Shown piece after piece: positions 22 to 43,825 of a stretch of 48,677 bases of DNA (its first letter is position 1; every line of letters starts with the position of its first letter). The stretch lies in assembly GCA_031291825.1 (NCBI GenBank), contig JARLIG010000003.1, forward strand, positions 1 through 48,677. Reading direction: 5' to 3'. Under the pieces are notes generated by a model. The model saw nothing but the letters and a program-made list of their open reading frames with translations, had not been told where the DNA came from and ran no database searches. This DNA is from Minisyncoccota bacterium (GTDB lineage: Bacteria; Patescibacteriota; Minisyncoccia; Phycocordibacterales; UBA9973). Both the position numbers and the translations under genes were made by a program.

Positions 22-61
22 CAGTTTCGAGGTCTGTAAGCTACCTCCCGACCAACGTCTG
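22..61 (-). repeat. Degenerate copy of the dispersed bipartite GACGT palindromic element
   Basis: Reverse complement reads CAGACGTTGGTCGGGAGGTAGCTTACAGACCTCGAAACTG. This is collinear with the copy at 18812-18855 (CAGACGTTGGACGTCTGGAAGCTTACAGACGTGGAGCGTCTG), including the shared spacer AGCTTACAGAC. Lies just 3' of the tRNA-Tyr gene. Confidence 0.55.
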
Positions 62-312: not shown

Positions 313-2121
313 ATGGAAATTAGAAATATAGCAATTATAGCTCACGTGGACCACGGTAAAACGACCTTGACTGACTGGCTGATGAAGCAAAATGGTGGTC
401 TGCAAGATGAGGGAATTTCAATGGACTCAAACGACCTAGAAAAGGAGCGTGGTATTACTATTTATTCCAAAAATACTTCCATCACTTATAAAGGAACAAA
501 AATAAACATTGTGGACACTCCAGGTCACGCGGATTTCGGTTCAGAAGTCGAACGTGTTTTGCGCGCCATTGACTCCGTGCTTTTATTGGTGGATGCAGTG
601 GAAGGACCGATGCCACAAACCAGATTCGTTTTAAAGAAATCTTTAGAGTTGGGATTAAAGCCAATCGTGGTCATAAATAAAATAGATAAACCAGCTTCCG
701 ACCCGCATCGTGTGCATGAAGAAATTTTAGATTTATTTTTTGAGTTGGGTGCGAACGAAGAGCAAGCAAATTTTGAAACTATTTATGCGATTGGACGTGA
801 AGGTAAAGCATTTAAACATCTCGGAGACAAGTCAGAAGATTTGTCACCATTACTTGATTTAATTTTAGAAAAAGTTCCACCAGCTTCGAAGAATGGTGAT
901 GGTTTGATGTCTGCGCAAGTTTTCAATTTAGGTTACGATAATTTCTTAGGCAGAATGGCCGTGGCCAGAATTTATTCCGGAGTATTAAAAGCTAGCAATC
1001 CAGTTTTTATTAAAGGAGAAAACGGAACACGCAAAGGAAAAATTACCAAGTTGTTTGTCTTTGAAGGTATCACTAGAAAGGAAGTAGAGAGCGCCGATTC
1101 TGGAGATATTGTTCTTTTGGCGGGTATTCCAGATATTTATATTGGAGAGACATTGTGTGAGAACGAGAATGTCGAACCACTTCCTCATATCGCGATAGAT
1201 GAACCGACTTTGTCGCTTAATTTTTTAGTAAACGATTCTCCATTTGCCGGCAAAGAAGGGAAGTATGTGACTTCCAGACAAATCAAAGAAAGATTGGAAA
1301 AAGAATTAGAAATAAACGTCGGGTTAAAAGTAGATTTTACTCCAGACCAAGGTGAAAAAAATATGGGCCCAAGTTTTTTCAAAGTATATGGACGTGGAGA
1401 GTTGCACATCGCTATTTTGCTCGAAAATATGCGCCGAGAAGGTTTTGAAATGCAAGTCTCACAGCCAGAAGTTATCATTAAAGAAGTTGATGGTCATAAG
1501 ACCGAGCCATACGAAGAATTAGTTATTGATGTGCCGATGGAGTCAAGTGGAAGTGTGATTGAAAAGATTGGCAAGCGACGTGGCATTATGAAAGATATGG
1601 TAGAAAAAGAAGGTATTGCAAGGATTATTTTCGATATACCGACTCGTGGATTGCTCGGTTATCGAGGTGAATTTATTATTGACACGAAAGGGGAAGGCAT
1701 AATGAGTTCTCGGGTGACTGGCTTTAAAGACTACGCGGGGGAAATAAAAAGACGAGAGTATGGGTCTATGACTTCGATGGTTTCTGGTAAGGCAGTAGCC
1801 TTTTCCCTTGCAAATTTACAGGAACGTGGTATATTGTATGTAGGTCATGGTGCGGAAGTTTACGAAGGTATGGTGGTTGGAAATGTCCTCAAGGGAGATG
1901 ATATGGCAGTGAACCCGACGAAAGGAAAACAACTTACCAACATGCGTGCTTCTGGTACAGATGAAGCCATCACCTTGAACCCTGTTTTTACTTTGAGTAT
2001 CGAACGAGGGTTAGAAGTGATGAACGAAGATGATTACCTGGAAGTTACTCCAAAATCAGTCAGGCTTCGAAAAAAATATCTGACAGAACTTGACCGCAAA
2101 AAACATTTTGCACAATCTTAA
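313..2121 (+). CDS. typA: Translational GTPase TypA/BipA
   Basis: G-domain motifs [21 protein letters not shown]. The 602-aa length and C-terminal region are typical of BipA rather than EF-G or LepA. Confidence 0.92.
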
Positions 2122-5599: not shown

Positions 5600-5604
5600 A
5601 AAAG

Positions 5605-5650
5605 ATACAGACGTTGGACGTCTGGGGAACCGAGACGTCCAACGTCTATA
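5605..5650. repeat. GACGT palindromic element copy (inverted pair)
   Basis: CAGACGTTGGACGTCTGG, then GGAACCG, then AGACGTCCAACGTCT. The arms are reverse complements and each arm is itself a hairpin. Starts 6 nt after the mltG stop. Confidence 0.8.
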
Positions 5651-5660
5651 TCAAAATTAT

Positions 5661-6188
5661 ATGAAAAAACACAATTTTGCTTTTATTGATATAGAAACTA
5701 CAGGCTTAAACTTATTAAAGAATGAGATTATTGAAATTGGCTGTGTTCTCACAACACCTGACTTAAAAGTAATCGAAGAATTTGAATTGAAAATAAAACC
5801 AGAACATATAGAAACAGCTAACCAAATTGCTCTCAAGGTAAATCATTACAATAGAGAAGATTGGGAATCAGCTCTTAGTTTAGAAAAAGCTATTAAAATA
5901 TTTTCTAAAAAAGTTAGAGACTGTATTATGGTTGGACACAATGTATCTTTTGACTCTGGGTTTTTAGAATATACTTTTAATCAATTTAAAATAAAAAATC
6001 CGATGCATTATCACAAGTTAGATACTATTTCTATTGCTTGGGCAAAATTTCACAACGATCCAAGCTTCGAGCATTTCTCTTTACATGAAATGTGTTTGCA
6101 TTTTGGTATAAAAAACGAGCGTGCACATTCTGCTTTGCCTGATGCTCGTGCCACATATGAGCTTTACAAAAAACTCATGTCTCTGTAG
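5661..6188 (+). CDS. DEDDh 3'-5' exonuclease (DnaQ / Pol III epsilon-like)
   Basis: Exo motifs FIDIETTGL, VGHNVSFDSGFL, HSALPDA. Confidence 0.8.
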   Translation: MKKHNFAFIDIETTGLNLLKNEIIEIGCVLTTPDLKVIEEFELKIKPEHIETANQIALKVNHYNREDWESALSLEKAIKIFSKKVRDCIMVGHNVSFDSGFLEYTFNQFKIKNPMHYHKLDTISIAWAKFHNDPSFEHFSLHEMCLHFGIKNERAHSALPDARATYELYKKLMSL

Positions 6189-6293
6189 AATCAAAATATT
6201 CTCTAAAAAGCCCGCATAATTTTCTGCTGAAAATTTGCTTAGACTTCGGCCCGTCGGCCTACGTAAGACTTTTTATAGAACATTTTGATTCTA
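6186..6293. mobile_element. MITE-like element with 25-nt terminal inverted repeats filling the whole intergenic spacer
   Basis: Left TIR is TAGAATCAAAATATTCTCTAAAAAG (6186-6210). Reverse complement of 6269-6293 is TAGAATCAAAATGTTCTATAAAAAG (2 mismatches in 25). The left end is the TAG stop of the upstream gene and the right end is the A of the mnmA ATG. The GC-rich interior contains AATTTTCTGCTGAAAATT. Confidence 0.6.
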
Positions 6294-7453
6294 TGAGTAA
6301 CACAAAGAAGAAAATTGTATTCGTTGGACTTTCGGGAGGTGTAGACTCTGCGGTTTCTGCTGCGCTTCTGAAAAAACAAAATTATGAAGTTGTCGGAGTT
6401 TTTATCAAAACTTGGCATCCGGAGTTTTTAGTGTGCAACGAAGAAGAAGAACGTATGGACGCGATGCGCGTGGCAGCTCATTTAGATATCCCTTTTTTAA
6501 CTTTTGATTTTAGCGACGTTTACAAAAAAGAAGTTGCAGACTATATGATAAATGAGTATAAAACTGGAAGAACTCCAAATCCAGATGTGATGTGCAATAA
6601 AGAAGTGAAGTTTGGAGCATTTCTCAAAAAAGCACTTTCAATGGGTGCTGACTTTGTGGCGACTGGACATTATGCACAAGAGTTTTCAGAGCAGAATTTT
6701 AAAGGCGGAAGGTTCCGCCCGAAGGGTGGAGTAATGCCGAAAAATTCTGCTCTGAAAACGTTTTTAGTTAAAGGAATAGACCCCTCAAAAGATCAAAGTT
6801 ATTTTTTGTGGACATTAAAACAAGAACAATTAAGCAAAATTTTATTTCCAATTGGATATTTAAAAAAGACCGAAGTAAGAATTTTGGCGAAGAAATTTAA
6901 ATTACCAGTTGCGGAAAAGAAAGACAGTCAAGGGATTTGCTTTTTAGGCGCGGTAGATTTAAAAGAATTTTTGAAGCATTATATTAAATCAAAAAAAGGG
7001 AAAGTTGTTAATGAAAAAGGGGAGGATGTTGGCTATCATGATGGAGTAGTTTTCCACACATTAGGGGAGAGACATGGATTTACAATTACTAAAAAAGGTT
7101 CAACGGATGGCGCGTATTATGTCATTGGTAAGGATATTAAAAAAAATATTTTAGTTGTTTCGCAATCCCCAGACGTTGGACTGACGTTGGACACCCGCCA
7201 AGGGCGGATGTCCAACGTCGACCCAGACGTCCAACGTCTGGAACAAACTAATTGGATTTTAAAAATTCCAAAACCAAATAAAAATTATACAGCGCAAATC
7301 CGTTACCATGGAGAATTTTTTCCTTGTCAGATATTAATCAAATCAAAAACGGAGGTAGAAGTTTTATTCAAAAAACCAGTCATTATTGCCTCTGGTCAAT
7401 CCATTGTTGTTTATGACAAAGATGTTTGCCTGGGCGGCGGAGTGGTTGTATAA
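6293..7453 (+). CDS. mnmA: tRNA 2-thiouridine(34) synthase MnmA, carrying two in-frame palindromic insertions
   Basis: PP-loop SGGVDSAV, ATGHYA, KDQSYFL, DSQGICFLG, C-terminal barrel ending CLGGG. Confidence 0.9.
   Translation: MSNTKKKIVFVGLSGGVDSAVSAALLKKQNYEVVGVFIKTWHPEFLVCNEEEERMDAMRVAAHLDIPFLTFDFSDVYKKEVADYMINEYKTGRTPNPDVMCNKEVKFGAFLKKALSMGADFVATGHYAQEFSEQNFKGGRFRPKGGVMPKNSALKTFLVKGIDPSKDQSYFLWTLKQEQLSKILFPIGYLKKTEVRILAKKFKLPVAEKKDSQGICFLGAVDLKEFLKHYIKSKKGKVVNEKGEDVGYHDGVVFHTLGERHGFTITKKGSTDGAYYVIGKDIKKNILVVSQSPDVGLTLDTRQGRMSNVDPDVQRLEQTNWILKIPKPNKNYTAQIRYHGEFFPCQILIKSKTEVEVLFKKPVIIASGQSIVVYDKDVCLGGGVVV
6683..6758. repeat. Intragenic palindromic element (18-nt perfect inverted repeat, 40-nt GC-rich core)
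   Basis: TTTTCAGAGCAGAATTTT (6683-6700) is the exact reverse complement of AAAATTCTGCTCTGAAAA (6741-6758). The core contains the hairpin GGCGGAAGGTTCCGCC. Translated in frame as FSEQNFKGGRFRPKGGVMPKNSALKT. Confidence 0.8.
7169..7241. repeat. Intragenic copy of the GACGT palindromic element (long imperfect inverted repeat)
   Basis: CCAGACGTTGGACTGACGTTGGACACCCGCC, then AAG, then GGCGGATGTCCAACGTCGACCCAGACGTCCAACGTCTGG. Translated in frame as PDVGLTLDTRQGRMSNVDPDVQRLE. Confidence 0.8.
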
Positions 7454-18811: not shown

Positions 18812-18855
18812 CCAGACGTTGGACGTCTGGAAGCTTACAGACGTGGAGCGTCTGG
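18812..18855. repeat. GACGT palindromic element copy (bipartite)
   Basis: The perfect palindrome CCAGACGTTGGACGTCTGG is followed by AAGCTTA and then the hairpin CAGACG-TGGAG-CGTCTG. Lies between convergent genes. Confidence 0.8.
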
Positions 18856-18868
18856 AGGGTTATCCACT

Positions 18869-19408: not shown

Positions 19409-19422
19409 GTTTTTTTTTGGGC

Positions 19423-19480
19423 TTGACCCCGTCGCTCACGAGCGACGGGGTTGACATACATATAGGCTATCATATATACT
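19423..19480 (+). promoter_or_regulatory. GC palindrome (candidate operator) abutting the dnaK promoter TTGACA-N18-TATACT
   Basis: TTGAC-CCCCGTCGCTCACGAGCGACGGGG-TTGACA. Palindrome at 19427-19450 with 10-11 bp arms; -35 at 19451-19456; -10 TATACT at 19475-19480. Sits between divergent genes. Confidence 0.55.
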
Positions 19481-21851: not shown

Positions 21852-23897
21852 ATGGAACTGCCAGAAATACCCATAAATAAAGACGTTACCTATTTAGGTC
21901 TGACGACTTTTCGCGACAAAAATCAACTCTTCGGCATCAAGCGCAAAGACAGGCGTCAGCATGTTTATATTCTCGGAAAGTCCGGTACCGGTAAATCCGT
22001 GCTGATGTTCAACATGATTATTCAGAACATTCAAAATGGCGAAGGAGTCTGCGTTGTAGACCCGCACGGAGAACTAGTGGAGGGTGTCTTGTCGGCGATT
22101 CCGCCAGATAGAATCAAAGATGTCGTTTACTTCAATCCTGCCGATGCAGACCATCATATTGGTTTTAACGTCTTGGAATTGATTGACCCGCAATATAAAC
22201 ATCTCGTAGCTTCAGGGCTGATGGGCATTTTCACGAAAATTTGGGCGAATGCTTGGAGCGCCCGAATGGAATATATTTTGAATAATTGTATTTTGGCATT
22301 GCTCGATACTCCGGGCACGACCTTGCTCGGTATTCCGCGAATGCTCGTAGACAAAGATTATCGACAGAAAATAATCGGAAATTTAAAAGACCCAGTCATC
22401 AAGGCTTTTTGGGTGCACGAATACGAAGCGTGGCAAGATAAATTCCGAAACGAAGCGATTGCGCCGATTCAAAACAAAGTCGGACAGTTTCTCTCGACTT
22501 CAATCATCCGTAACGTCGTCGGTCAGTCTACGAGTACCATCAATATTTTTGACATCATGAACGATGGCAAAATTTTCTTGGTGAACGTTTCTAAGGGACG
22601 CATCGGTGAAGACAACTCCGGGTTACTTGGAGGAATGATTATTACCAAGATTCAGTTGGCGGCGATGGAACGTGTGCGTATTCCCGAAGAACACCGCAAA
22701 GACTTTTACCTTTATGTAGACGAATTCCAAAACTTCGTAACCGATGCTTTTGCGGGTATTTTGTCCGAAGCTCGAAAATATCGACTCAATCTTACCGTCG
22801 CGCACCAGTACACCGCGCAGCTCGTGGTAGATAAAAGTTCGGCGGTGCGTGACGCAGTTTTCGGCAACGTCGGAACGATGATTGTTTTCCGTGTCGGTTC
22901 CGATGACGCAGACTTTTTGGAAAAAGAATTTGACCCAGAGTTCACGCCAGGAGATATCGTAAACCTGCCGAACTATAAAATTTATATCAAGCTAATGATT
23001 GACGGTGTGACTTCTCGTCCATTTTCTGCCAAAACTTTGCCTCCGATGGTGAAGTCGGGGAATAAAGAGATTGAAGATGAGGTTATTGAATCTTCGCGCA
23101 AATTATATTGTCGACCAAGAACTGTTGTGGAAAGAGAAATCAACGATTGGAGTGGAATGTCACTCGGAGATGAAGCTGGTTCTGGTACTGGAATTTTAGA
23201 AAAATTTCCAGCGATTTGTTCGCTTTGCGGGAAAAACACTACCGTGCCTTTCAAGCCAGAACCAGGAAGACCAGTTTACTGTAAAGATTGTGTTGCTAAA
23301 ATAAAATCTGGAGAAGTGAAAGTAGAAAAAAAGGGGCAAGACCAGATTCGTTTTGATGAAACGACTTTTTATAAACCCTTGGCTGATTTAGGAATAGAAT
23401 TTAAACAAAAAAACAATAAAGATGGAGTAGATGAAAATTATGTTGAGAGTACGGAGAGAAGTGTCCTTGCTGCAAAGAAGCCAGGAATAATAAGCTCTTT
23501 CAAAAAAGTATTTACCAAACCAAAGCCAGTAAATAATTATCAATCAAAACCGCCAGTTGTAAAAAACGCAGGCTTGAAAGAAGTTTTAAGTAAAGCTTTA
23601 TCAGAACCTATTACACCCAAGCCCACAACTCCGCCAGTAGTCACTCCAGCTCCAATTCCAGAACCAGTTTCACTCAATACTCTGAAAGATAAAATAAAAA
23701 CAGTTACACAGACTCCAATCACATCCAAAGACCGTGCGGCTAGTGCTGAGGATATGAATAAGTTGAAAGATTTGATTGCCGCGAAGTCAACAGGGCAAGC
23801 AACCTCAGAACTCACTTCAACTTCTCCCAAAGAAGAAGTTCCAAAAAGTAAAACTAAAGAAGTCCCTGAAGATGTATTGAAAAAAATCTTAGAATAA
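21852..23897 (+). CDS. TraD/VirD4 (T4CP)-like FtsK-HerA superfamily ATPase, no TM anchor, with C-terminal CxxC-x17-CxxC zinc ribbon and Pro/Thr-rich tail
   Basis: Walker A ILGKSGTGKS, Walker B FYLYVDEFQNF, LNLTVAHQY. Zinc ribbon CSLCGKNTTVPFKPEPGRPVYCKDC. No hydrophobic N-terminal helices. Confidence 0.7.
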   Translation: MELPEIPINKDVTYLGLTTFRDKNQLFGIKRKDRRQHVYILGKSGTGKSVLMFNMIIQNIQNGEGVCVVDPHGELVEGVLSAIPPDRIKDVVYFNPADADHHIGFNVLELIDPQYKHLVASGLMGIFTKIWANAWSARMEYILNNCILALLDTPGTTLLGIPRMLVDKDYRQKIIGNLKDPVIKAFWVHEYEAWQDKFRNEAIAPIQNKVGQFLSTSIIRNVVGQSTSTINIFDIMNDGKIFLVNVSKGRIGEDNSGLLGGMIITKIQLAAMERVRIPEEHRKDFYLYVDEFQNFVTDAFAGILSEARKYRLNLTVAHQYTAQLVVDKSSAVRDAVFGNVGTMIVFRVGSDDADFLEKEFDPEFTPGDIVNLPNYKIYIKLMIDGVTSRPFSAKTLPPMVKSGNKEIEDEVIESSRKLYCRPRTVVEREINDWSGMSLGDEAGSGTGILEKFPAICSLCGKNTTVPFKPEPGRPVYCKDCVAKIKSGEVKVEKKGQDQIRFDETTFYKPLADLGIEFKQKNNKDGVDENYVESTERSVLAAKKPGIISSFKKVFTKPKPVNNYQSKPPVVKNAGLKEVLSKALSEPITPKPTTPPVVTPAPIPEPVSLNTLKDKIKTVTQTPITSKDRAASAEDMNKLKDLIAAKSTGQATSELTSTSPKEEVPKSKTKEVPEDVLKKILE

Positions 23898-23904
23898 AAA
23901 ATAT

Positions 23905-25428
23905 ATGCCAAAGGCAAATCGAGTTCAAATAATCAAATATGGTCCGCCACCGCCAGAATTGCCTGTCTTCGGCAAGGTGAAACCCGAGGAGGTTTCTTTT
24001 ATTGGGCGGACTAATTATGTCGCTTCTTTAGAAGAAAAGAAATTCGTTTTCGGAATCAAAAGAATTGACCGACGCCGACATCTTTATATTATCGGAAAGT
24101 CTGGCGTTGGAAAGACTAAGCTACTGGAACTTTTCTTGCGACAAGATATCACTTATGGTCATGGTGTTTGTTTGATTGACCCGCACGGAGATGTCATCGA
24201 TGCAATGTTGGATTATATTCCAAAAGAAAGAATTGATGATGTTTGTATTATTGACCCAACTGATTTAGATTTTCCAGCGTCTTTCAATCCGCTGGCGAAT
24301 GTCGACCCACTTTTTAAATTTCAGTTGACGCAGGGCTTGATTGAAGTTTTTCAAAAACAATTCGGAGCAAATTGGACGCCTCGTTTGGAGCACGTTTTTC
24401 GTTTTACTTGTTTGGCCCTCTTGGATTATCCACATGCGACAATGCGTGGAATGATTTCGATGTTGACTGATAGAAATTATAGACAGAAAGTCGTGGAATA
24501 TATTACGGACGACATGGTGAAAAGATTCTTCGCGATTGAATTTGCCGATTGGTCGGAAAAATTTGATACAGATGCAATTATTCCACTCGTCAACAAACTC
24601 GGACAATTTCTTTCTGACCCGTTACTACGAAATATTTTTGGGCAGAAGCAAAATAAAATTGATATCAGTCAGTTGATGAATGAAGAAAAGATAATTTTAA
24701 TCAATCTTTCCAAAGGACGTCTGGGAGAAGAGAATTCATCTTTTTTGGGTTCGATGTTTTTGACAAAAATAAAACAAGCGGGGATGGAACGAGCTGCTAT
24801 TCCAGAAGCAGAACGTAAAGATTTTTATCTATATGTGGACGAGTTTCAAAATGTTGTGACGCAGACTTTTGAGAATATTTTATCGGAAGCTAGAAAATAT
24901 GGACTGAATCTAACGATGGCTCATCAATACGTCGGGCAAATTCTTCCGAAGGTACATCAGGCGGTGCTTGGTAATTGTGGAAGTATTATTTGCTTCCGTG
25001 TTGGCGGAGAGGATGCAGTAAAAATGAAGCCAGAGTTTGCTCCCTTGTTTGATGTGAAAGATATGATTAATCTGGCTGTCACAGAATTTTACATTAAAAT
25101 GACAATTGATGGAGAATCCTATGACCCATTTTCTGCAGAGACCTTAAAAGTTCTTCCACCCACTCATCCTTCTTATAAAGAAGAAATTATCGCAGCTTCT
25201 AGGGCAAAATATTCTATATCAAAAGACGATGCGCAGAAGTTGATTACCGAAGAAGAGTCTACAATTATTCGTAGTGCCGAAGAGAAGGCGATTATTGAAG
25301 GTAGGGCTAAAAGAAAAGAAAAAGAAAAAAATAAAGATAAAAATGTTGACGAGGAATCGGAAGAAAATGAAGTAAAGAATGAAACACCAAAAACAAAATC
25401 TTCACAAGAAGCTGAACCTATGATATAA
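23905..25428 (+). CDS. Paralogous TraD/VirD4-like ATPase (no TM anchor, Lys/Glu-rich tail)
   Basis: Collinear with the upstream ORF: FGIKRIDRRRHLYIIGKSGVGKT, FYLYVDEFQNV, LNLTMAHQY. Confidence 0.7.
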   Translation: MPKANRVQIIKYGPPPPELPVFGKVKPEEVSFIGRTNYVASLEEKKFVFGIKRIDRRRHLYIIGKSGVGKTKLLELFLRQDITYGHGVCLIDPHGDVIDAMLDYIPKERIDDVCIIDPTDLDFPASFNPLANVDPLFKFQLTQGLIEVFQKQFGANWTPRLEHVFRFTCLALLDYPHATMRGMISMLTDRNYRQKVVEYITDDMVKRFFAIEFADWSEKFDTDAIIPLVNKLGQFLSDPLLRNIFGQKQNKIDISQLMNEEKIILINLSKGRLGEENSSFLGSMFLTKIKQAGMERAAIPEAERKDFYLYVDEFQNVVTQTFENILSEARKYGLNLTMAHQYVGQILPKVHQAVLGNCGSIICFRVGGEDAVKMKPEFAPLFDVKDMINLAVTEFYIKMTIDGESYDPFSAETLKVLPPTHPSYKEEIIAASRAKYSISKDDAQKLITEEESTIIRSAEEKAIIEGRAKRKEKEKNKDKNVDEESEENEVKNETPKTKSSQEAEPMI

Positions 25429-26533: not shown

Positions 26534-26548
26534 CCTGTGGAAACCCCT

Positions 26549-26592
26549 CCAGACGTTGGACGTCTGTATGTATACAGACGTCCAACGTCTGG
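26549..26592. repeat. GACGT palindromic element, best-preserved copy (21-nt perfect arms)
   Basis: CCAGACGTTGGACGTCTGTAT-GT-ATACAGACGTCCAACGTCTGG, 15 nt after the dnaJ stop. Confidence 0.85.
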
Positions 26593-32948: not shown

Positions 32949-33001
32949 CCCCCTCCGCCTTTGGCACCTCCCCCTTAATAAGGGGGAGGAAGGGTGGGGG
33001 T
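32946..33001. repeat. Nested G/C-tract palindrome between dnaB and recR (likely dnaB terminator hairpin)
   Basis: Inner stem CCTCCCCC-TTAATAA-GGGGGAGG (32966-32988). The outer arms are imperfect: CACCCCCTCC and GGGTGGGGGTG. Confidence 0.6.
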
Positions 33002-33004
33002 GAA

Positions 33005-34399
33005 CTAGAACTCGTCTAGTTCACCGCTTATCTTCGATGGAGCGAAGTCGCTTAGACTACTTTTTTCCAGATTTAAGAAAGTAGTGGTTTTTTCATCAAA
33101 GTACAGGTCAACTTTTCCAGTCGGTCCGTTGCGGTGCTTTTCAATCAAGATTTCCGCGATGTTTGTCCTTTCAGATTCATCTTTTCCTTTATCTTCACGG
33201 TGAATAAACATAACGACGTCGGCGTCCTGTTCGATAGAGCCTGAATCGCGGAGGTCGGAAAGGCGAGGCTTACCACCGCGAGATTCCACGGCACGGGAGA
33301 GCTGTGAAAGAGCAAGCACAGGAACATCTAATTCTTTTGCTAAACTTTTTAGAGACCTGGAAATTTCGGTCACTTGGTTGACCATTGAGTCATAATTTTT
33401 AGAAGTGGTCATGAGCTGTAGGTAGTCGACGACGATAAGGTCGACACCTTTTTCGGCTTTTAGTCTACGAGCCAAAGCTTTCATGCGTACGATAGAATTT
33501 CCAGCTTGGTCATCAATAAAAATTTTAGCCTTAGCGAGTTTATCTAGTGAATCTCGAAGTTGAGAGAATTCTCGGTCTGAAGAAAGATTGCCGGTACGTA
33601 GATTCCAAGCATTTACGCGAGATTGCGCAGAGAGCATTCTGTCGACAAGTTGCTGGGAAGACATTTCCAAAGAAAATATTAAAACAGACTTGTCGTGATT
33701 CACGGCAGCCAATCGGGAGATATCAAGTGCTAAGGTGGTTTTACCCATACTTGGTCTGGCCGCCAAAATAATTAAATCAGAATTTTGTAAACCAGAGAGC
33801 ATAGTGTCTAATTCTTTAAATCCGGTCGGCAGACCACGAAGCATTCCTTTGTGTTCGTGTAATTTTTCCATACGCTCATAAGCTTCCGGCAGGGCATCTT
33901 TCAGGTTTACATACTTTTGATTTTTTGGACTAGAGACAACACCGAAAATTTTCTTTTCTGCCATGTCTAAAATATCATCCATGTGGTCATCGCCTTCTTC
34001 AAAGGCAAGTTCGGAAACATAATCTGCTGCTTCAATCAAACTTCGCAACACATATTTTTTTTGTACGATGTCAGCATAGTGTTTGACGTTAGTGGAAGAG
34101 GGAACAATGTTTACAATCTCTGCGAGATATTGATTTCCACCAACTGATTCCAGAAACTTTTGTTCACTTAATTTTGTAGAAAGCGAAAGCATGTCTATCG
34201 GTTCATTTTTGACAGACAAGTCTAACATCGCTTGAAAAATCTTTTTATGCTTTTCAACATAGAAAGAATCTGCGGTAATAGCATCTTCCACTTCGTGCAT
34301 AGCGTCCTTACGTAGCATAATAGAGCCCAAAACTGCTTGTTCGGAAGGGATGCTTTGGGGTGGAATGCGCAAGTTACTATTTTTATTTGTCTTTACCAT
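33005..34399 (-). CDS. dnaB: Replicative DNA helicase DnaB
   Basis: N-terminal PPQSIPSEQAVLGSIM, Walker A AARPSMGKTT, and the RecA-like C-terminal domain. Confidence 0.95.
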   Translation of the reverse strand: MVKTNKNSNLRIPPQSIPSEQAVLGSIMLRKDAMHEVEDAITADSFYVEKHKKIFQAMLDLSVKNEPIDMLSLSTKLSEQKFLESVGGNQYLAEIVNIVPSSTNVKHYADIVQKKYVLRSLIEAADYVSELAFEEGDDHMDDILDMAEKKIFGVVSSPKNQKYVNLKDALPEAYERMEKLHEHKGMLRGLPTGFKELDTMLSGLQNSDLIILAARPSMGKTTLALDISRLAAVNHDKSVLIFSLEMSSQQLVDRMLSAQSRVNAWNLRTGNLSSDREFSQLRDSLDKLAKAKIFIDDQAGNSIVRMKALARRLKAEKGVDLIVVDYLQLMTTSKNYDSMVNQVTEISRSLKSLAKELDVPVLALSQLSRAVESRGGKPRLSDLRDSGSIEQDADVVMFIHREDKGKDESERTNIAEILIEKHRNGPTGKVDLYFDEKTTTFLNLEKSSLSDFAPSKISGELDEF

Positions 34400-39935: not shown

Positions 39936-42437
39936 CTAGTTCCTTGATTCTAGGAATTTTTGGATAACTTTTTTGTCTCGTTTGAGCCAAGAGATATTGC
40001 CTTCGAGTCGTTCTATGACTTGCTCAATAGATCTTTTAGCGCCAGGAGCTTCGTGGGTGGCAAAAAATTTTTTGAAGGATTTTAAATGATGTTCTTCTGC
40101 ACTACCGTTGAGAGCTTTAACTGCGCGTCCTAAGGTGAGTCCGCCTTCGCCATAGCGTGTTACAAGCACTTTCCAATTCTTCTCTACAAAATTCCACCAA
40201 ATATCACGACCCAAAGGATTCATTCCCACGCCTGACAAAATACCAACTGTGTCTTGGGTGCGGACTTCTTTGGACATTGCAAATAGGCAGACCTTTTCTA
40301 GGATTTTTGGATCAGTGAAGTCACCCAAGGCATTTCCGATGCGATTTTTTTCTTCATGTAATGTTTCATTTTTATATAGTTTTATAAACATTTCATATTC
40401 TTTTTTATTTCCATAAGTCGCGACGATAGAGTAGATAGCACCTCTAATATCTGGAGTTATTTTTTCGCCTCTTTGCACTAATAAAAATTTATTCTGCGCG
40501 TCTTTAATTATTTTTTTATCTCCAGCTCTTCCAGCACGAGAAATAGCCAGCGATCTAAGAAGTGTGTCTGTGTGATTTTCGCCCTCTACTTTATTCCAAT
40601 CCAATCTTTCTGCAATGGGGGAAAATATTTCTCTGGTTATATTTCTAAAAGCTTTTTCTTCTGGGAGGAGTTGCTCTAGACGAGCTAGTCCCATAGCAAG
40701 TTCAAGCAAAACTGTGTAAGTATCTTCATTTTTAAAAGCTTTTAGAAATTCTAATGCATCAGTCGTGGGTATTGTTCCAGCCTCAGATAAAGCAAAAAGA
40801 TCTCTGACGATACCTAGTCTATCTATTTCTGGCAAAGTCTTTTCCAAGACTGGCTTAACTAATTTTTCTAAAAGTTCAGGAGAGTATGCTGTACGATAGA
40901 ATCCAGTTTCGCCTATGTTTATTTTTGTCCAAGAATTATTGGTATCTACCAAGATTGGTACTTCCCATTTTGTTTTTTCTTTATTATTTTGTTTTGAAAA
41001 AGGATTAGCAAAAAATCTCTCTTGGGTTAAGAATAAATAATTATTTTTTATTTCAGCTTTAATAACGGGGTAGCCAGGTTTAGAGGTCCAGTTTTTCATC
41101 ATTTTTGTGACTGGTTTTTTGGAAACTTTTTCAAATGCCTTCCATAGATGTATGGTCTCTGTATTTTTATAACTATGTTTTTTAAGATAATAACGCAAAC
41201 CATTGCGAAAATTTTCTTCACCTAGATAATTTGCAAGCATTCTAATAATCGAAGCACCCTTAGAATAAGATATCTCATCAAATATTTCTCCAATTTCATC
41301 GGGGTGGTGAACTTCAACTTCGATGGGGTGGGTTTTTGTTAATGCATCTAAGCGCAAAGCTATACCAAGGTCGCTCGTTGCAAATTGTGTCCAAATATTC
41401 CATTTTGGAAAAAGTTTATCTACTGCTAAGTATTCTATATAAGAAGCAAAACCCTCGTTTAACCATAAATGTGTCCACCATTCCATTGTGACTAGATTTC
41501 CAAACCACTGATGTGCAAGCTCATGAGCAATAACAAGAGCCACCCACTGTTTATTTGAAGTAGAAGAATTTTCTCCATCAACCAAAAGAGCACTTTCTCT
41601 ATAAGTGATAGCACCCCAATTTTCCATTGCGCCGGAAGAAAAGTCTGGAACAGCAATCATGTCGAGTACTGGCAGGGGATAATTTATGTCAAAGTATTTT
41701 TCGTAAAATTCCAAAGTTTTAACTGCGCATCCAAGAGCAAATTTTGCTTGATGCTTTTTGTTTGGAACTGTGTATACACGGACTCGTATATTTCTTTTTG
41801 TTTTAGCTTCTAAATATTCAAAATCTCCAACAATGAAAGCAAGTAGGTAGGTGGACATCTTTGGTGTTGGAGAAAATTTTACGATTTCGTATCCAGCTTC
41901 GTGTTCTAAAACAGAAACAGGCAGTGTGTTGGAAATTGCTGTTTTACCTTTTGGTATCACAAGTGAGACATTAAAAATTGCTTTGTGCGCTGGCTCATCA
42001 AAACAGGGAAAAGCACGGCGTGCATCAGTGGCCTCAAATTGTGTAGTGGCCATGTGATATTCTTTTTTTCCGATACTATAACGGCTGCGATAAAAACCTC
42101 GCATTTTATCATTTAGTATTCCTTTAAAAACCAAGGTGAGTTTTGTTTTTGAGGGCAGAATAAGTTTAGGAAATGAAAAAGTAGCGGTTTCCTTTTTAGA
42201 ATCATAAGAAATTTTTGCAAACACTTTTTCTTTTCCAATCGATGCATCAGCTGTGATTATCTCAATTTCCTTAGAGTGCAGGGTGATAGTTTTGGTTTTT
42301 TTAAAAACAGAAAGAGTGATTGTTTCCGTGCCTTCAAAAGTAAAATTTTCTAAATCAGGCTTTAGTTGTATGTCATATTCTTTGGGAATAATGTCTTTGG
42401 AAAGTCGCACATTTTTTGCAATATTTTTCTTTGGCAT
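39936..42437 (-). CDS. pepN: M1 family aminopeptidase (aminopeptidase N-like with ERAP1-like C-terminal domain)
   Basis: GAMEN exopeptidase motif and HELAHQWFGNLVTMEWWTHLWLNEGFA (HEXXH-x18-E). Confidence 0.9.
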   Translation of the reverse strand: MPKKNIAKNVRLSKDIIPKEYDIQLKPDLENFTFEGTETITLSVFKKTKTITLHSKEIEIITADASIGKEKVFAKISYDSKKETATFSFPKLILPSKTKLTLVFKGILNDKMRGFYRSRYSIGKKEYHMATTQFEATDARRAFPCFDEPAHKAIFNVSLVIPKGKTAISNTLPVSVLEHEAGYEIVKFSPTPKMSTYLLAFIVGDFEYLEAKTKRNIRVRVYTVPNKKHQAKFALGCAVKTLEFYEKYFDINYPLPVLDMIAVPDFSSGAMENWGAITYRESALLVDGENSSTSNKQWVALVIAHELAHQWFGNLVTMEWWTHLWLNEGFASYIEYLAVDKLFPKWNIWTQFATSDLGIALRLDALTKTHPIEVEVHHPDEIGEIFDEISYSKGASIIRMLANYLGEENFRNGLRYYLKKHSYKNTETIHLWKAFEKVSKKPVTKMMKNWTSKPGYPVIKAEIKNNYLFLTQERFFANPFSKQNNKEKTKWEVPILVDTNNSWTKINIGETGFYRTAYSPELLEKLVKPVLEKTLPEIDRLGIVRDLFALSEAGTIPTTDALEFLKAFKNEDTYTVLLELAMGLARLEQLLPEEKAFRNITREIFSPIAERLDWNKVEGENHTDTLLRSLAISRAGRAGDKKIIKDAQNKFLLVQRGEKITPDIRGAIYSIVATYGNKKEYEMFIKLYKNETLHEEKNRIGNALGDFTDPKILEKVCLFAMSKEVRTQDTVGILSGVGMNPLGRDIWWNFVEKNWKVLVTRYGEGGLTLGRAVKALNGSAEEHHLKSFKKFFATHEAPGAKRSIEQVIERLEGNISWLKRDKKVIQKFLESRN

Positions 42438-43232: not shown

Positions 43233-43799
43233 ATGCATTTAGAACAAAAAATAGAAGCAATACTTTTTTTTAAAGGCGAACCAGTCTCTTTGAAAAAACT
43301 TGAGGATATTTTAAAAGTTTCAAAAGAACAAATTGATGAGGCTATTTTAAATTTAAAAAATAATCTTACAAATAGAGGAATAGCGTTGATGGAAAAAGAT
43401 ACAGAAATTACTCTGGGCACGACTCCGGAATTAAGTAAATTGATTGAAGATTTACAAAAAGAAGAATTAAATAAAGAACTTTCCAAGGCTAGTTTAGAAA
43501 CTTTATCAATTATTCTTTATAAAAACGGCGCTAGTCGAGCAGAGATTGATTACATTCGAGGCGTAAATTCTAGTTTTACCTTACGTGCTTTGTCTGTTCG
43601 AGGACTCGTAGAAAAAACGGTAGACACTAAAGATAATCGCCGATACATTTACAAACCAAGCTTTGAACTACTAGCTTTCATGGGCGTCGCTTCAATTGAA
43701 GAGTTGCCGGACTATGCGGAAGTAAGTGGTTCTCTTAACGTAGCTGCAAAAAGTTTAGAAGAAGAAACTACAAAAGAATCAGACGTTGGACAACTGTAA
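43233..43799 (+). CDS. scpB: Segregation and condensation protein B
   Basis: IEAILFFKGEPVSLKKL...SLETLSIILYKNGASRAEIDYIRGVNS...LVEK. Confidence 0.88.
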   Translation: MHLEQKIEAILFFKGEPVSLKKLEDILKVSKEQIDEAILNLKNNLTNRGIALMEKDTEITLGTTPELSKLIEDLQKEELNKELSKASLETLSIILYKNGASRAEIDYIRGVNSSFTLRALSVRGLVEKTVDTKDNRRYIYKPSFELLAFMGVASIEELPDYAEVSGSLNVAAKSLEEETTKESDVGQL

Positions 43800-43821
43800 A
43801 CAGGTGTACAACGTCTGATTC
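43776..43821. repeat. GACGT palindromic element copy overlapping the scpB C-terminus and stop
   Basis: The left arm GAATCAGACGTTGGACAACTG pairs with the right arm CAGGTGTACAACGTCTGATTC. The element encodes SDVGQL-stop. Lies between convergent genes. Confidence 0.75.
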
Positions 43822-43825
43822 TAAT

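Follow-up and report, generated by a model that had tools for sequence, protein, structure and literature searches.

In the window, i.e. the whole 48,677-nt stretch analyzed here (contig JARLIG010000003.1 of a Minisyncoccota bacterium, assembly GCA_031291825.1), the gene mnmA for tRNA 2-thiouridine(34) synthase carries a 73-nt imperfect inverted repeat inside its open reading frame (ORF). The ORF at 6293..7453 encodes a bona fide MnmA. Its product scores 373.8 bits against the NCBIfam MnmA equivalog NF001138 (cut-off 284) and 350 bits against TIGR00420 (cut-off 237), and matches MnmA chains in the PDB with E = 1e-82, with 2hma and 2der aligned over the full length. The PP-loop motif SGGVDS (S14-S19), D98, C101 and C216 are all invariant in an alignment of 121 sequences. 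The repeat had been noticed in an earlier reading of the letters of this DNA (hereafter the sequence-only reading), according to which it is read through without a stop or frameshift. The present analysis confirms this.

The element reads CCAGACGTTGGACTGACGTTGGACACCCGCCAAGGGCGGATGTCCAACGTCGACCCAGACGTCCAACGTCTGG and can be parsed as CCAGACGTTGGAC-TGACGTTGGACA-CCCGCCAAGGGCGG-ATGTCCAACGTCGA-CCCAGAC-GTCCAACGTCTGG. It forms a single long nested hairpin with outer arms of 13 bp (7169-7181 and 7229-7241) and inner arms of 17 nt each (7183-7199 and 7203-7219, 94% matched), and has an 8-nt bulge, GACCCAGAC, on the 3' side. The second helix, which spans 7183-7219 inside the outer one, shows the GACGTTGGAC/GTCCAACGTC motif again and ends in the tip CCGCC-AAG-GGCGG. 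Folded as RNA, the element has a minimum free energy (MFE) of -53.3 kcal/mol, as compared to -24.3 +/- 3.2 for its dinucleotide shuffles (z = -9.05), none out of 200 of which was as stable. By employing a 110-nt sliding fold over the whole window (mean -18.7, sd 6.2), we found the element, at -55.5, to be the second most stable place in the window and the most stable within any gene, with an intergenic double hairpin at 32951-33060 as the sole place of lower energy. No U-run directly follows the mnmA hairpin (AACAAACTAATTGG) or the related copy at 26549 (GATTAAAAAAT), i.e. neither has the form of an intrinsic terminator. Furthermore, an Rfam scan of the whole window matched tRNA-Tyr alone, the hairpins being without any match.

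In the protein, the element corresponds to residues P293-E317, PDVGLTLDTRQGRMSNVDPDVQRLE. The sequence-only reading had added that a related copy at the end of scpB uses the same frame, and this holds for the outer arms and scpB (GAC GTT GGA), but not for the inner copy in mnmA, which is read in another phase (ACG TTG GAC, i.e. TLD). The site is the second of two hypervariable segments, hereafter hot spots 1 and 2, and alignments of solved MnmA structures with the window protein have gaps exactly at both of them. An AlphaFold2 model, run with the 121-sequence alignment, is of moderate quality (mean predicted local distance difference test, pLDDT, 72.7; predicted template modelling score, pTM, 0.59). 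Its top Foldseek matches are 2hma and 2deu (E = 5e-31), and because the domain packing is poor (template modelling score, TM, ~0.5) the model was used for local confidence alone. The pLDDT is below 50 for the stretch from strand 286-290 to the C-terminal barrel (residues 297-322), which fits a flexible loop. Residues 131-150 are also of low pLDDT, and hot spot 1 is at the tip of a beta-hairpin. Hot spot 2 lies in this model at the boundary where the central domain passes into the C-terminal barrel, and is likely a disordered surface loop.

Hot spot 2 of mnmA among relatives

An orthologue search yielded 120 proteins (67-75% identity, 358-428 aa), the named ones belonging to Candidatus Nomurabacteria or Paceibacterota. 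At the DNA level, six orthologues and 80 species-representative genomes were compared (designated by L numbers), with both segments delimited by alignment. Two hypervariable segments were found in an otherwise well-conserved MnmA. Hot spot 1, between ATGHY and KDQSYFL, has a baseline of 15 aa, a maximum of 70 and a length of 38 in the window. For hot spot 2, between NIL.V and TNWI, the shortest common form is 19 aa (e.g. SQNRSISHSNILTNIRIEN), with a maximum of 44 and 29 in the window. Repeat-free orthologues (e.g. L004, L057 and L067, as well as P0003, P0053 and P0095) have here the 19-residue segment SQ-NRSISHSNILTNIRIEN, which is similar in length to the S. pneumoniae MnmA linker, and to which the 29 residues of the window are unrelated in sequence. 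The sequence-only reading had put the linker at about 28 aa here, as compared to 18-20 aa in E. coli and B. subtilis MnmA, and the orthologues agree with this: the segment is an indel, and no equally long homologous peptide was found in genomes without the repeat. Alleles of baseline length are rich in AT (GC content 0.23-0.40) and fold weakly (-5 to -13 kcal/mol), as opposed to 0.40-0.57 and -30 to -78 kcal/mol for the longer ones.

Whether the element had been inserted into the linker or had replaced it was left as an alternative in the sequence-only reading, and both turn out to be true. In four relatives, namely L001, L002, L003 (= L008) and L005 (= L011), a 43-nt hairpin of the same family, CCAGACGTTGGACGTC-loop-GACGTCCAACGTCTGG, encoding PDVGRRGNFDVQRLE, is found at baseline linker length, and 14 native codons have therefore been replaced. 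The window shares the outer 13 + 13 nt with these relatives but has a centre of 47 nt instead of 17, i.e. a net gain of 30 nt (10 aa). Its nested form with a second motif hairpin occurs in the window alone among about 200 orthologues. In L005, the loop triplets TGG and CCA are swapped in both arms, and in L002 the central loop is inverted. Such flips are the type of change that events templated by a DNA hairpin would be expected to produce, and not point mutations arising independently. The window's hot-spot-2 DNA was misaligned by MAFFT owing to the internal repeats; the flips were read directly and carry no formal pair counts.

A single open frame is kept in all 87 loci and in the 120 database orthologues, through inserts that add from 0 to about 165 nt. 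Of the 132 segments that bear inserts, 100% are open in the frame used, as compared to 9-41% in the other five frames. The element in the window's mnmA is stop-free in five out of six frames, and openness itself is therefore unremarkable, the real constraint being that length differences are multiples of three. As excision or bypass would lift the constraints on frame and stop codons, their being kept suggests that the palindromic inserts are translated and that frame-breaking alleles are purged.

Conservation of the element was also high at the nucleotide level. The outer arms (26 nt) are 92-100% identical among the window, L001, L002 and L003, and L005 differs by its flipped triplets alone, whereas third positions for the same amino acid in the flanking 120 codons are identical at a rate of 0.40-0.64, i.e. 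saturated. The same contrast between high identity and saturated synonymous sites is seen for a non-coding palindrome upstream of mnmA (6186-6293). The repeat consensus could reflect either a nucleotide-level constraint, homogenisation against other copies, or recent spread.

The GACGT family and other palindromes

The 10-mer GACGTTGGAC, with at most one mismatch, occurs 12 times in the window versus 1.3 expected, a number reached by none out of 100 shuffles. All 12 matches are confined to six loci, or about one locus per 8 kb, and the mnmA repeat thus belongs to a GACGT family, as the sequence-only reading had it. The unit of this family is 19 nt long, CCAGACGT-TGG-ACGTCTGG, with an 8-bp stem (CCAGACGT/ACGTCTGG) and TGG or CCA as the loop, and the usual copy is a head-to-head pair of units, such dimers being 44-49 nt. 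Dispersed single copies were not found in the window by the 10-mer scan. Four of the six loci are intergenic, approximately 5-20 nt from a stop codon, the remaining two being the copy that overlaps the scpB end and the one within mnmA (Table 1). In the scpB copy the left arm alone is translated (ESDVGQL), so that the last 5-6 residues of ScpB stem from the repeat; the stop codon lies in the hairpin loop, and the hairpin (43775-43822) is shared with the convergent VanY-like gene.

Table 1. Coordinates of mnmA, its palindromes and related repeats; positions refer to the window unless an L number is given.
Feature	Position	Strand	Remarks
mnmA, tRNA 2-thiouridine(34) synthase, 386 aa	6293..7453	+	ORF, NCBIfam, PDB, Foldseek
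Nested imperfect GACGT palindrome, 73 nt, hot spot 2 linker	7169..7241	+	Sequence, fold, comparison with relatives
Left outer arm, CCAGACGTTGGAC, encodes PDVG	7169..7181	+	Common to L001, L002, L003, L005
Central 47 nt with second hairpin 7183-7219 and 3' bulge	7182..7228	+	17 nt in relatives
Right outer arm, GTCCAACGTCTGG, encodes VQRL-E	7229..7241	+	Occupies place of native y-R-I-E strand start
Second in-frame palindrome, different family, hot spot 1	6682..6759	+	Perfect 19-nt arms, -49.1 kcal/mol
Palindromic element, 108 nt, 25-nt arms, 58-nt asymmetric core	6186..6293	.	Whole spacer from exonuclease stop to mnmA ATG
Degenerate GACGT-like copy adjoining tRNA-Tyr	30..60	-	Intergenic
GACGT head-to-head dimer between mltG and DEDD exonuclease gene	5604..5652	.	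Syntenic copy in L005, 3262-3300
GACGT unit and variant unit between convergent genes	18812..18857	.	Intergenic
GACGT dimer, perfect 21-nt arms, between dnaJ and next gene	26549..26592	.	Intergenic
GACGT-type dimer across 3' end of scpB; neighbor gene convergent, VanY-like	43775..43822	.	Stop in loop
BipA filling	L045 624-667		
BipA filling	L055 5312-5363		
BipA filling	L057 4631-4678		
BipA filling	L067 5296-5343		
BipA filling	L084 4504-4551		
BipA fillings in further loci			L014, L023, L027, L044, L054, L073

Among the 87 loci, the GACGT family was found only in the window, L001, L002/L018, L003/L008 and L005/L011, in all of them in hot spot 2. L005 has it additionally in hot spot 1 and intergenically 1 kb upstream, in the gap between mltG and the exonuclease gene, as in the window. 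A metagenome scan with a 15-mer, in which only low-GC contigs with paired units were counted, detected paired GACGT units in further contigs, some of them in frame in unrelated proteins (L127, L128 and L198). Most of the 120 matches to the 15-mer were single and in high-GC contigs, and were dismissed as chance, as were all three matches of a 17-mer scan of viral contigs (single units in contigs of 56-66% GC). The idea of an HIP1-like or restriction-site motif was also abandoned: GACGTC occurs 11 times versus 3.6 expected, but six of the 11 fall within elements, and the motif is not enriched in general.

Intergenic GACGT units are often flanked by a DnaA-box-like sequence, TGTGGATAAC or GTTATCCACAG, as found in the window at 18859-18868 and 26535-26548. 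Motifs similar to TGTGGATAAC also adjoin units in L097, L099, L108, L121, L135, L153 and L162. Across the window, the TGTGGATAAC 10-mer is not enriched (5 versus 2.2 expected). The motif could belong to a longer composite element or serve as a binding site for a protein.

What the sequence-only reading had left unmentioned is that the mnmA site is one of two hot spots, and that two other palindromes are found at 6682-6759 and 6186-6293. The former, in hot spot 1, encodes part of FSEQNFKGGRFRPKGGVMPKNSALKT, and hot spot 2 of L006 contains its core, GGCGGAAGGTTCCGCCC, in inverted form. Of the latter, in the spacer upstream of mnmA, L001, L004, L054 and L006 carry equally placed copies of 92-95% identity, in which the core may face either way, and the spacer before the mnmA ATG of L013 holds the arms alone. 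The core is also 78-81% identical to in-frame inserts in hot spot 2 of L029, L050, L058, L076 and L084. Consequently, one and the same family is non-coding in one genome and coding in another.

Both hot spots are occupied in most species. Hot spot 1 is filled (25 aa or more) in 74 out of 86 loci and empty in 12, whereas hot spot 2 exceeds 22 aa in 52 out of 86 and is of baseline length but hairpin-replaced in at least nine more, i.e. at least 61 are occupied and about 25 are empty. At least 8-10 recognisable families recur at these sites. By peptide, they include HGSHS..NM.DRALVA, FGAFALGD.GQGTH, GGRFRPKGG / LLHPAGGTF, KSTDIFLLKNSS / SPRKILLNFRS, SSLRPSPEYRGGTLGK, LDKEGVGGGNSK, PPDKGGLRGVE and GACGT itself. 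The families are found in both orientations, and single, tandem or nested. Identical DNA families are present in both hot spots, as indicated by 237 cross-site BLAST matches, and in L079 the two hot spots hold one family in copies that are 90% identical. For the HGSHS family, similarity is 0.68-0.90 within genomes versus a mean of 0.72 between them, a weak signal of concerted evolution.

The longer families have conserved asymmetric cores, while their arms differ between species yet stay complementary. The outermost right arm repeats, in inverted form, the conserved left flank CAA-GAY-AAA-AA., which encodes Q-[ND]-K-N. The arms appear to reflect arm-to-arm correction together with outward growth of the palindrome via template switching, an established mutational mechanism for quasi-palindromes. 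In empty alleles of both mnmA hot spots, Q-N-K-N-F-S is encoded on CAAAAYAAAAATTTT, a mini-palindrome of the A5T5 type (L033, L043, L057, L064 and L070), which is either a shared target sequence or the footprint of earlier elements.

With a cut-off of -0.45 kcal/mol per nt or lower, 26 energy-dense hairpins were counted in 0.10 Mb of mnmA and 27 in the other 1.37 Mb of the related loci, 10 of the latter in other ORFs. The density of such compact hairpins in mnmA is thus about 13-fold that in the remainder of the 1.47 Mb. An initial census (MFE of -30 or below, span of up to 260 nt) was discarded as too permissive, most of its matches in other ORFs being long ordinary coding stretches. The window itself has about 13 compact hairpins, four of them in a 1.7 kb stretch around mnmA. 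A second gene with similar loops is BipA/TypA. In the relatives, it has two hot spots of smaller size, one following AFKNL and the other VPPAS, and about 20% of the species have them filled. The BipA inserts include head-to-head dimers of GTCAAGGGGCATCCTTGACA, and families from the mnmA hot spots recur in the BipA loops. The BipA of the window (313-2121) is of the empty type.

Additional features were noted elsewhere in the window. Two adjacent GC-rich hairpins at 32951-33025 (-56 kcal/mol in the 110-nt fold), not of the GACGT type, are situated between two minus-strand genes, one recR-like and the other at 33005-34399. At 19410-19460, between a PaaX-like gene and dnaK, there is a perfect GC-rich hairpin, TTGACCCCGTCGCTCACGAGCGACGGGGTTGAC, which may represent another repeat family or a terminator. 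Within the 833-aa minus-strand ORF at 39936-42437, a perfect 16-nt inverted repeat occurs at 40641-40749, its copies 77 nt apart. Lastly, the region between dnaK and dnaJ (21852-25428) holds two adjacent genes for TrwB/VirD4-like coupling ATPases, the first with a treble-clef zinc finger.

Origin and maintenance of the palindromes

Taken together, we consider it probable that the 73-nt sequence is a translated selfish palindrome, tolerated in a permissive linker of MnmA and resembling both repetitive extragenic palindromes (REPs) and Rickettsia palindromic elements (RPEs), i.e. the 'protein-coding palindromes' of Ogata and colleagues. It would be a copy of a lineage-specific REP-like repeat, with a dimer hairpin of about 44 nt occupying the linker between the domains. 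The outer pair of units, probably older than the lineage of the window, would have replaced 14 native codons with no change in length, and the window lineage would then have gained 30 nt with the same motif at the centre of the hairpin, presumably by nested insertion or partial duplication. Selection on the frame suggests that the element is kept in the mRNA and translated, and that the resulting disordered surface excursion of about 25 residues is tolerated. The element would persist as the loop accepts almost any sequence, and not for any usefulness of the peptide. Its symmetry may be maintained by hairpin processes at the DNA level, such as template switching or arm-to-arm conversion, which would explain the perfect arms, the paired TGG/CCA flips and the arms that copy flanking coding sequence in inverted form. 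That the family consensus is conserved between species would in turn imply that the sequence is recognised by something, or that it actively spreads.

Several observations weigh against this explanation. No transposase or REP-associated tyrosine transposase (RAYT) gene was found among the 26 window ORFs scanned, and no target-site duplications or direct repeats at the edges of any GACGT copy; related flanks of the copies are in inverted orientation (GATA/TATC, AGAAT/ATTCT). Mobility is something that we infer from the distribution of the copies alone. The GACGT family was seen in five related genomes only, and the copy in hot spot 2 could descend from a single ancient insertion; a neighbor-joining tree of MnmA with the hot spots masked is star-like and gives no answer on the monophyly of the carriers. 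The strong enrichment in mnmA is not what random selfish insertion predicts, which leaves room for site-specific targeting or a function tied to the gene, and the very high nucleotide conservation could equally well be that of a functional DNA or RNA motif. In addition, the nested form comes from a single assembly, and the AlphaFold2 model is of the moderate quality given above. Of particular interest are the strong preference for mnmA and the conservation of the repeats across species.

In the main rival, selection would act on the hairpins themselves, as cis-acting elements of the mnmA locus and not as passengers, and the peptide would be a by-product. The hairpins might then act in translation pausing or attenuation at domain boundaries, as protein-binding sites, or as tRNA-stem-like decoys for autoregulation by MnmA. 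The approximately 13-fold hairpin density in mnmA, with four of the window's roughly 13 hairpins close to the gene, would suit such a role, as would the occupancy of the hot spots (74 and at least 61 out of 86), the location of hot spot 2 at a domain boundary, and a conservation far above that of synonymous sites, which extends to the 92-95% identity of the upstream element in non-coding DNA. However, one and the same site holds at least 8-10 unrelated families, which argues against one specific RNA or protein-binding function, and these occupy both sites in either orientation and in single, tandem or nested form. With empty alleles at both sites (12 and about 25 out of 86), with the families present also between genes and in BipA loops, and with no match in Rfam, we find a gene-specific regulatory role unlikely. 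It appears quite improbable, moreover, that the palindromes arose locally through fold-back or template-switch errors in an AT-rich mini-palindrome, with no mobile element and with any likeness elsewhere due to convergence or gene conversion. The A5T5-type mini-palindrome on CAAAAYAAAAATTTT in the empty alleles of both hot spots points in that direction, and so do the inverted native left flank often carried in the arms, the repetition of the outer-arm motif GACGTTGGAC in the extra 30 nt of the window, as a partial duplication would give, and the lack of both transposase and target-site duplications. Local errors cannot, on the other hand, create the 19-nt units and the 50-60-nt asymmetric cores that recur at unlinked intergenic and genic sites in different genomes, and the inserts, with a GC content of 0.40-0.60, differ in composition from their AT-rich surroundings.

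Two other alternatives concern the product and the data. The element could be absent from the mature product through mRNA excision or ribosome bypass, as for T4 gene 60 and the mitochondrial byp elements. A very stable hairpin (-53 kcal/mol) in a coding region invites this thought, and CPR (candidate phyla radiation) genomes are known for unusual insertions in their rRNA genes. Yet all 132 insert segments are in frame and stop-free in the frame used, with the other frames mostly closed, and the element edges have neither a take-off/landing codon pair nor a stop codon, making this highly improbable. Hairpins are also hard for assemblers and for multiple displacement amplification (MDA), the nested form is found in the window alone, and the window MnmA is missing from the protein collection, so that the palindrome, or its inner 30 nt, might be suspected to be an assembly or amplification artefact. 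This is barely credible, as independent assemblies, made in different projects, have the outer hairpin at these very codons (L003 = L008, L005 = L011 and L002 = L018 = L152 here, and P0046 on 21 contigs), and as the extra 30 nt preserve both the reading frame and the two-fold symmetry.

A more far-reaching possibility, which we regard as doubtful, is that Nomurabacteria harbor transposase-less hairpin elements that integrate site-specifically at the centres of existing palindromes or in hairpin loops. The shared A5T5 mini-palindrome, the arms-only spacer of L013 and the hairpin-in-hairpin-loop of the window all point this way. A few loops in housekeeping genes (two in mnmA and two in bipA) would then serve as reusable landing pads, and the conserved cores, 92-100% identical across genomes with saturated synonymous sites, would be recognised by some host or mobile factor, e.g. 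a hairpin-specific recombinase or nuclease, or a DNA-uptake or defence system. If true, such site-specific integration would mean that DNA can move in ultra-small genomes by a new, coding-compatible route.

The bacteria of the CPR count as extremely streamlined, and yet selfish palindromes appear to have been written repeatedly into housekeeping coding sequence here. If the inserts are indeed translated selfish palindromes, the protein-coding palindromes of Rickettsia would have a counterpart in a very distant phylum with a similarly reduced, host-dependent lifestyle. The inserts would then amount to a natural saturation map of the permissive loops in MnmA and BipA, and the approximately 130 independent insert alleles at two homologous sites to a dataset on transposase-less movement and palindrome perfection. 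Being hypervariable and laterally similar, the segments could also distort alignments, trees and protein clustering in the CPR. They would, furthermore, raise the question of what conserves the repeats amid saturated synonymous sites.

Comparison with known repeat systems

In a full-text literature search, no account of palindromic repeats lying in frame was found for CPR, Patescibacteria or Nomurabacteria. The closest likeness in organisation is to the RPEs (RPE-1 and the shorter RPE-4 and RPE-6; summarised in PMC3733652), which are palindromic families with intergenic members as well as members in frame in housekeeping genes that remain functional, just as the GACGT family has an in-frame copy in a housekeeping gene as well as intergenic copies. 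RPE inserts are translated and located at surface-exposed, tolerant positions, they include a tRNA-modifying host (TruB), and no transposase is associated with them. The likeness is one of organisation, homology in sequence not being expected, and the hosts differ (Alphaproteobacteria versus CPR/Nomurabacteria). In the present case, moreover, two loops of one gene are filled in most species by many families, nested or in tandem and in both orientations, codons can be replaced without any change in length, and the arms absorb flanking coding sequence.

The RPEs are not the only well-known precedent, as the sequence-only reading would have it, since REPs and REP dimers within genes are on record for several phyla, where they encode 20-30 aa, including in tRNA-modifying enzymes (PMC3733652). 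CPR and Patescibacteria are absent from the phyla reported in that study, in which REPs are described as having stems of 8-9 bp, as forming head-to-head dimers and as being located at the 3' ends of genes, where the stop codon is in some cases part of the repeat (Di Nocera et al. 2013, PMC3733652). The REP superfamilies have a GTAG or CGTC tetranucleotide at one unit end and a short CCA-like tail; a RAYT, i.e. a tyrosine transposase of the IS200/IS605 type, is expected with GTAG REPs, whereas CGTC-tagged REPs have no associated transposase (PMC3733652). Judging from its sequence, the GACGT family fits the REP description in both anatomy and placement, i.e. in the stem of about 8 bp, the short loop, the head-to-head pairing and the location at gene ends between unidirectional or convergent genes. 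The unit is also a short palindromic stem-loop in the range of ~14-40 nt given for REPs, with a mostly extragenic placement at gene ends (PMC12306157). REPs are in addition multicopy, with a common consensus (PMC12306157), and here six loci share the 10-mer, as seen within the 48.7 kb window. The ACGTC-TGG of the unit (complement CCA-GACGT) is reminiscent of the CGTC head and CCA tail of CGTC REPs, by motif letters alone, whereas the GACGT loop is 3 nt long as compared to 4-5 nt.

Miniature inverted-repeat transposable elements (MITEs), e.g. Correia/NEMIS, ERIC, RUP and Nezha, are also small hairpin repeats with inverted ends that are sometimes co-transcribed or read through, and the enterobacterial RU elements occur intragenically (PMC2759123). 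The 80-110-nt elements, both those of hot spot 1 and those upstream of mnmA, resemble MITEs in size, with a conserved core between inverted arms. Their arms, on the other hand, vary by site and species and incorporate the flank, with no target-site duplication and no known parent insertion sequence (IS); neither the GACGT family nor the other families combine constant terminal inverted repeats with target-site duplications.

The DNA uptake sequences (DUS) of Neisseria and the uptake signal sequences (USS) of Pasteurellaceae are short motifs that often form inverted, terminator-like pairs after genes and are also found in coding regions. CPR bacteria are thought to depend on DNA uptake, and we know of no uptake specificity in them. 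The GACGT motif is similar in being conserved across related species beyond neutral expectation, at gene ends and at tolerant coding positions, but its density is about ten times lower, dispersed single copies are absent, and GACGTC is not enriched outside the elements. Another parallel is provided by the GC-cluster and double-hairpin elements of fungal mitochondria, i.e. mobile palindromes that are GC-richer than their AT-rich genomes, occur in frame and recur at hot spots. These belong to organelle genomes and have other sequences, and some of them are bypassed in translation, of which no sign was seen here. What sets the palindromes of mnmA apart from all these known cases is that the same two loops are refilled by many families, together with the nesting, the length-neutral replacement of codons and the arms that absorb their flanks.

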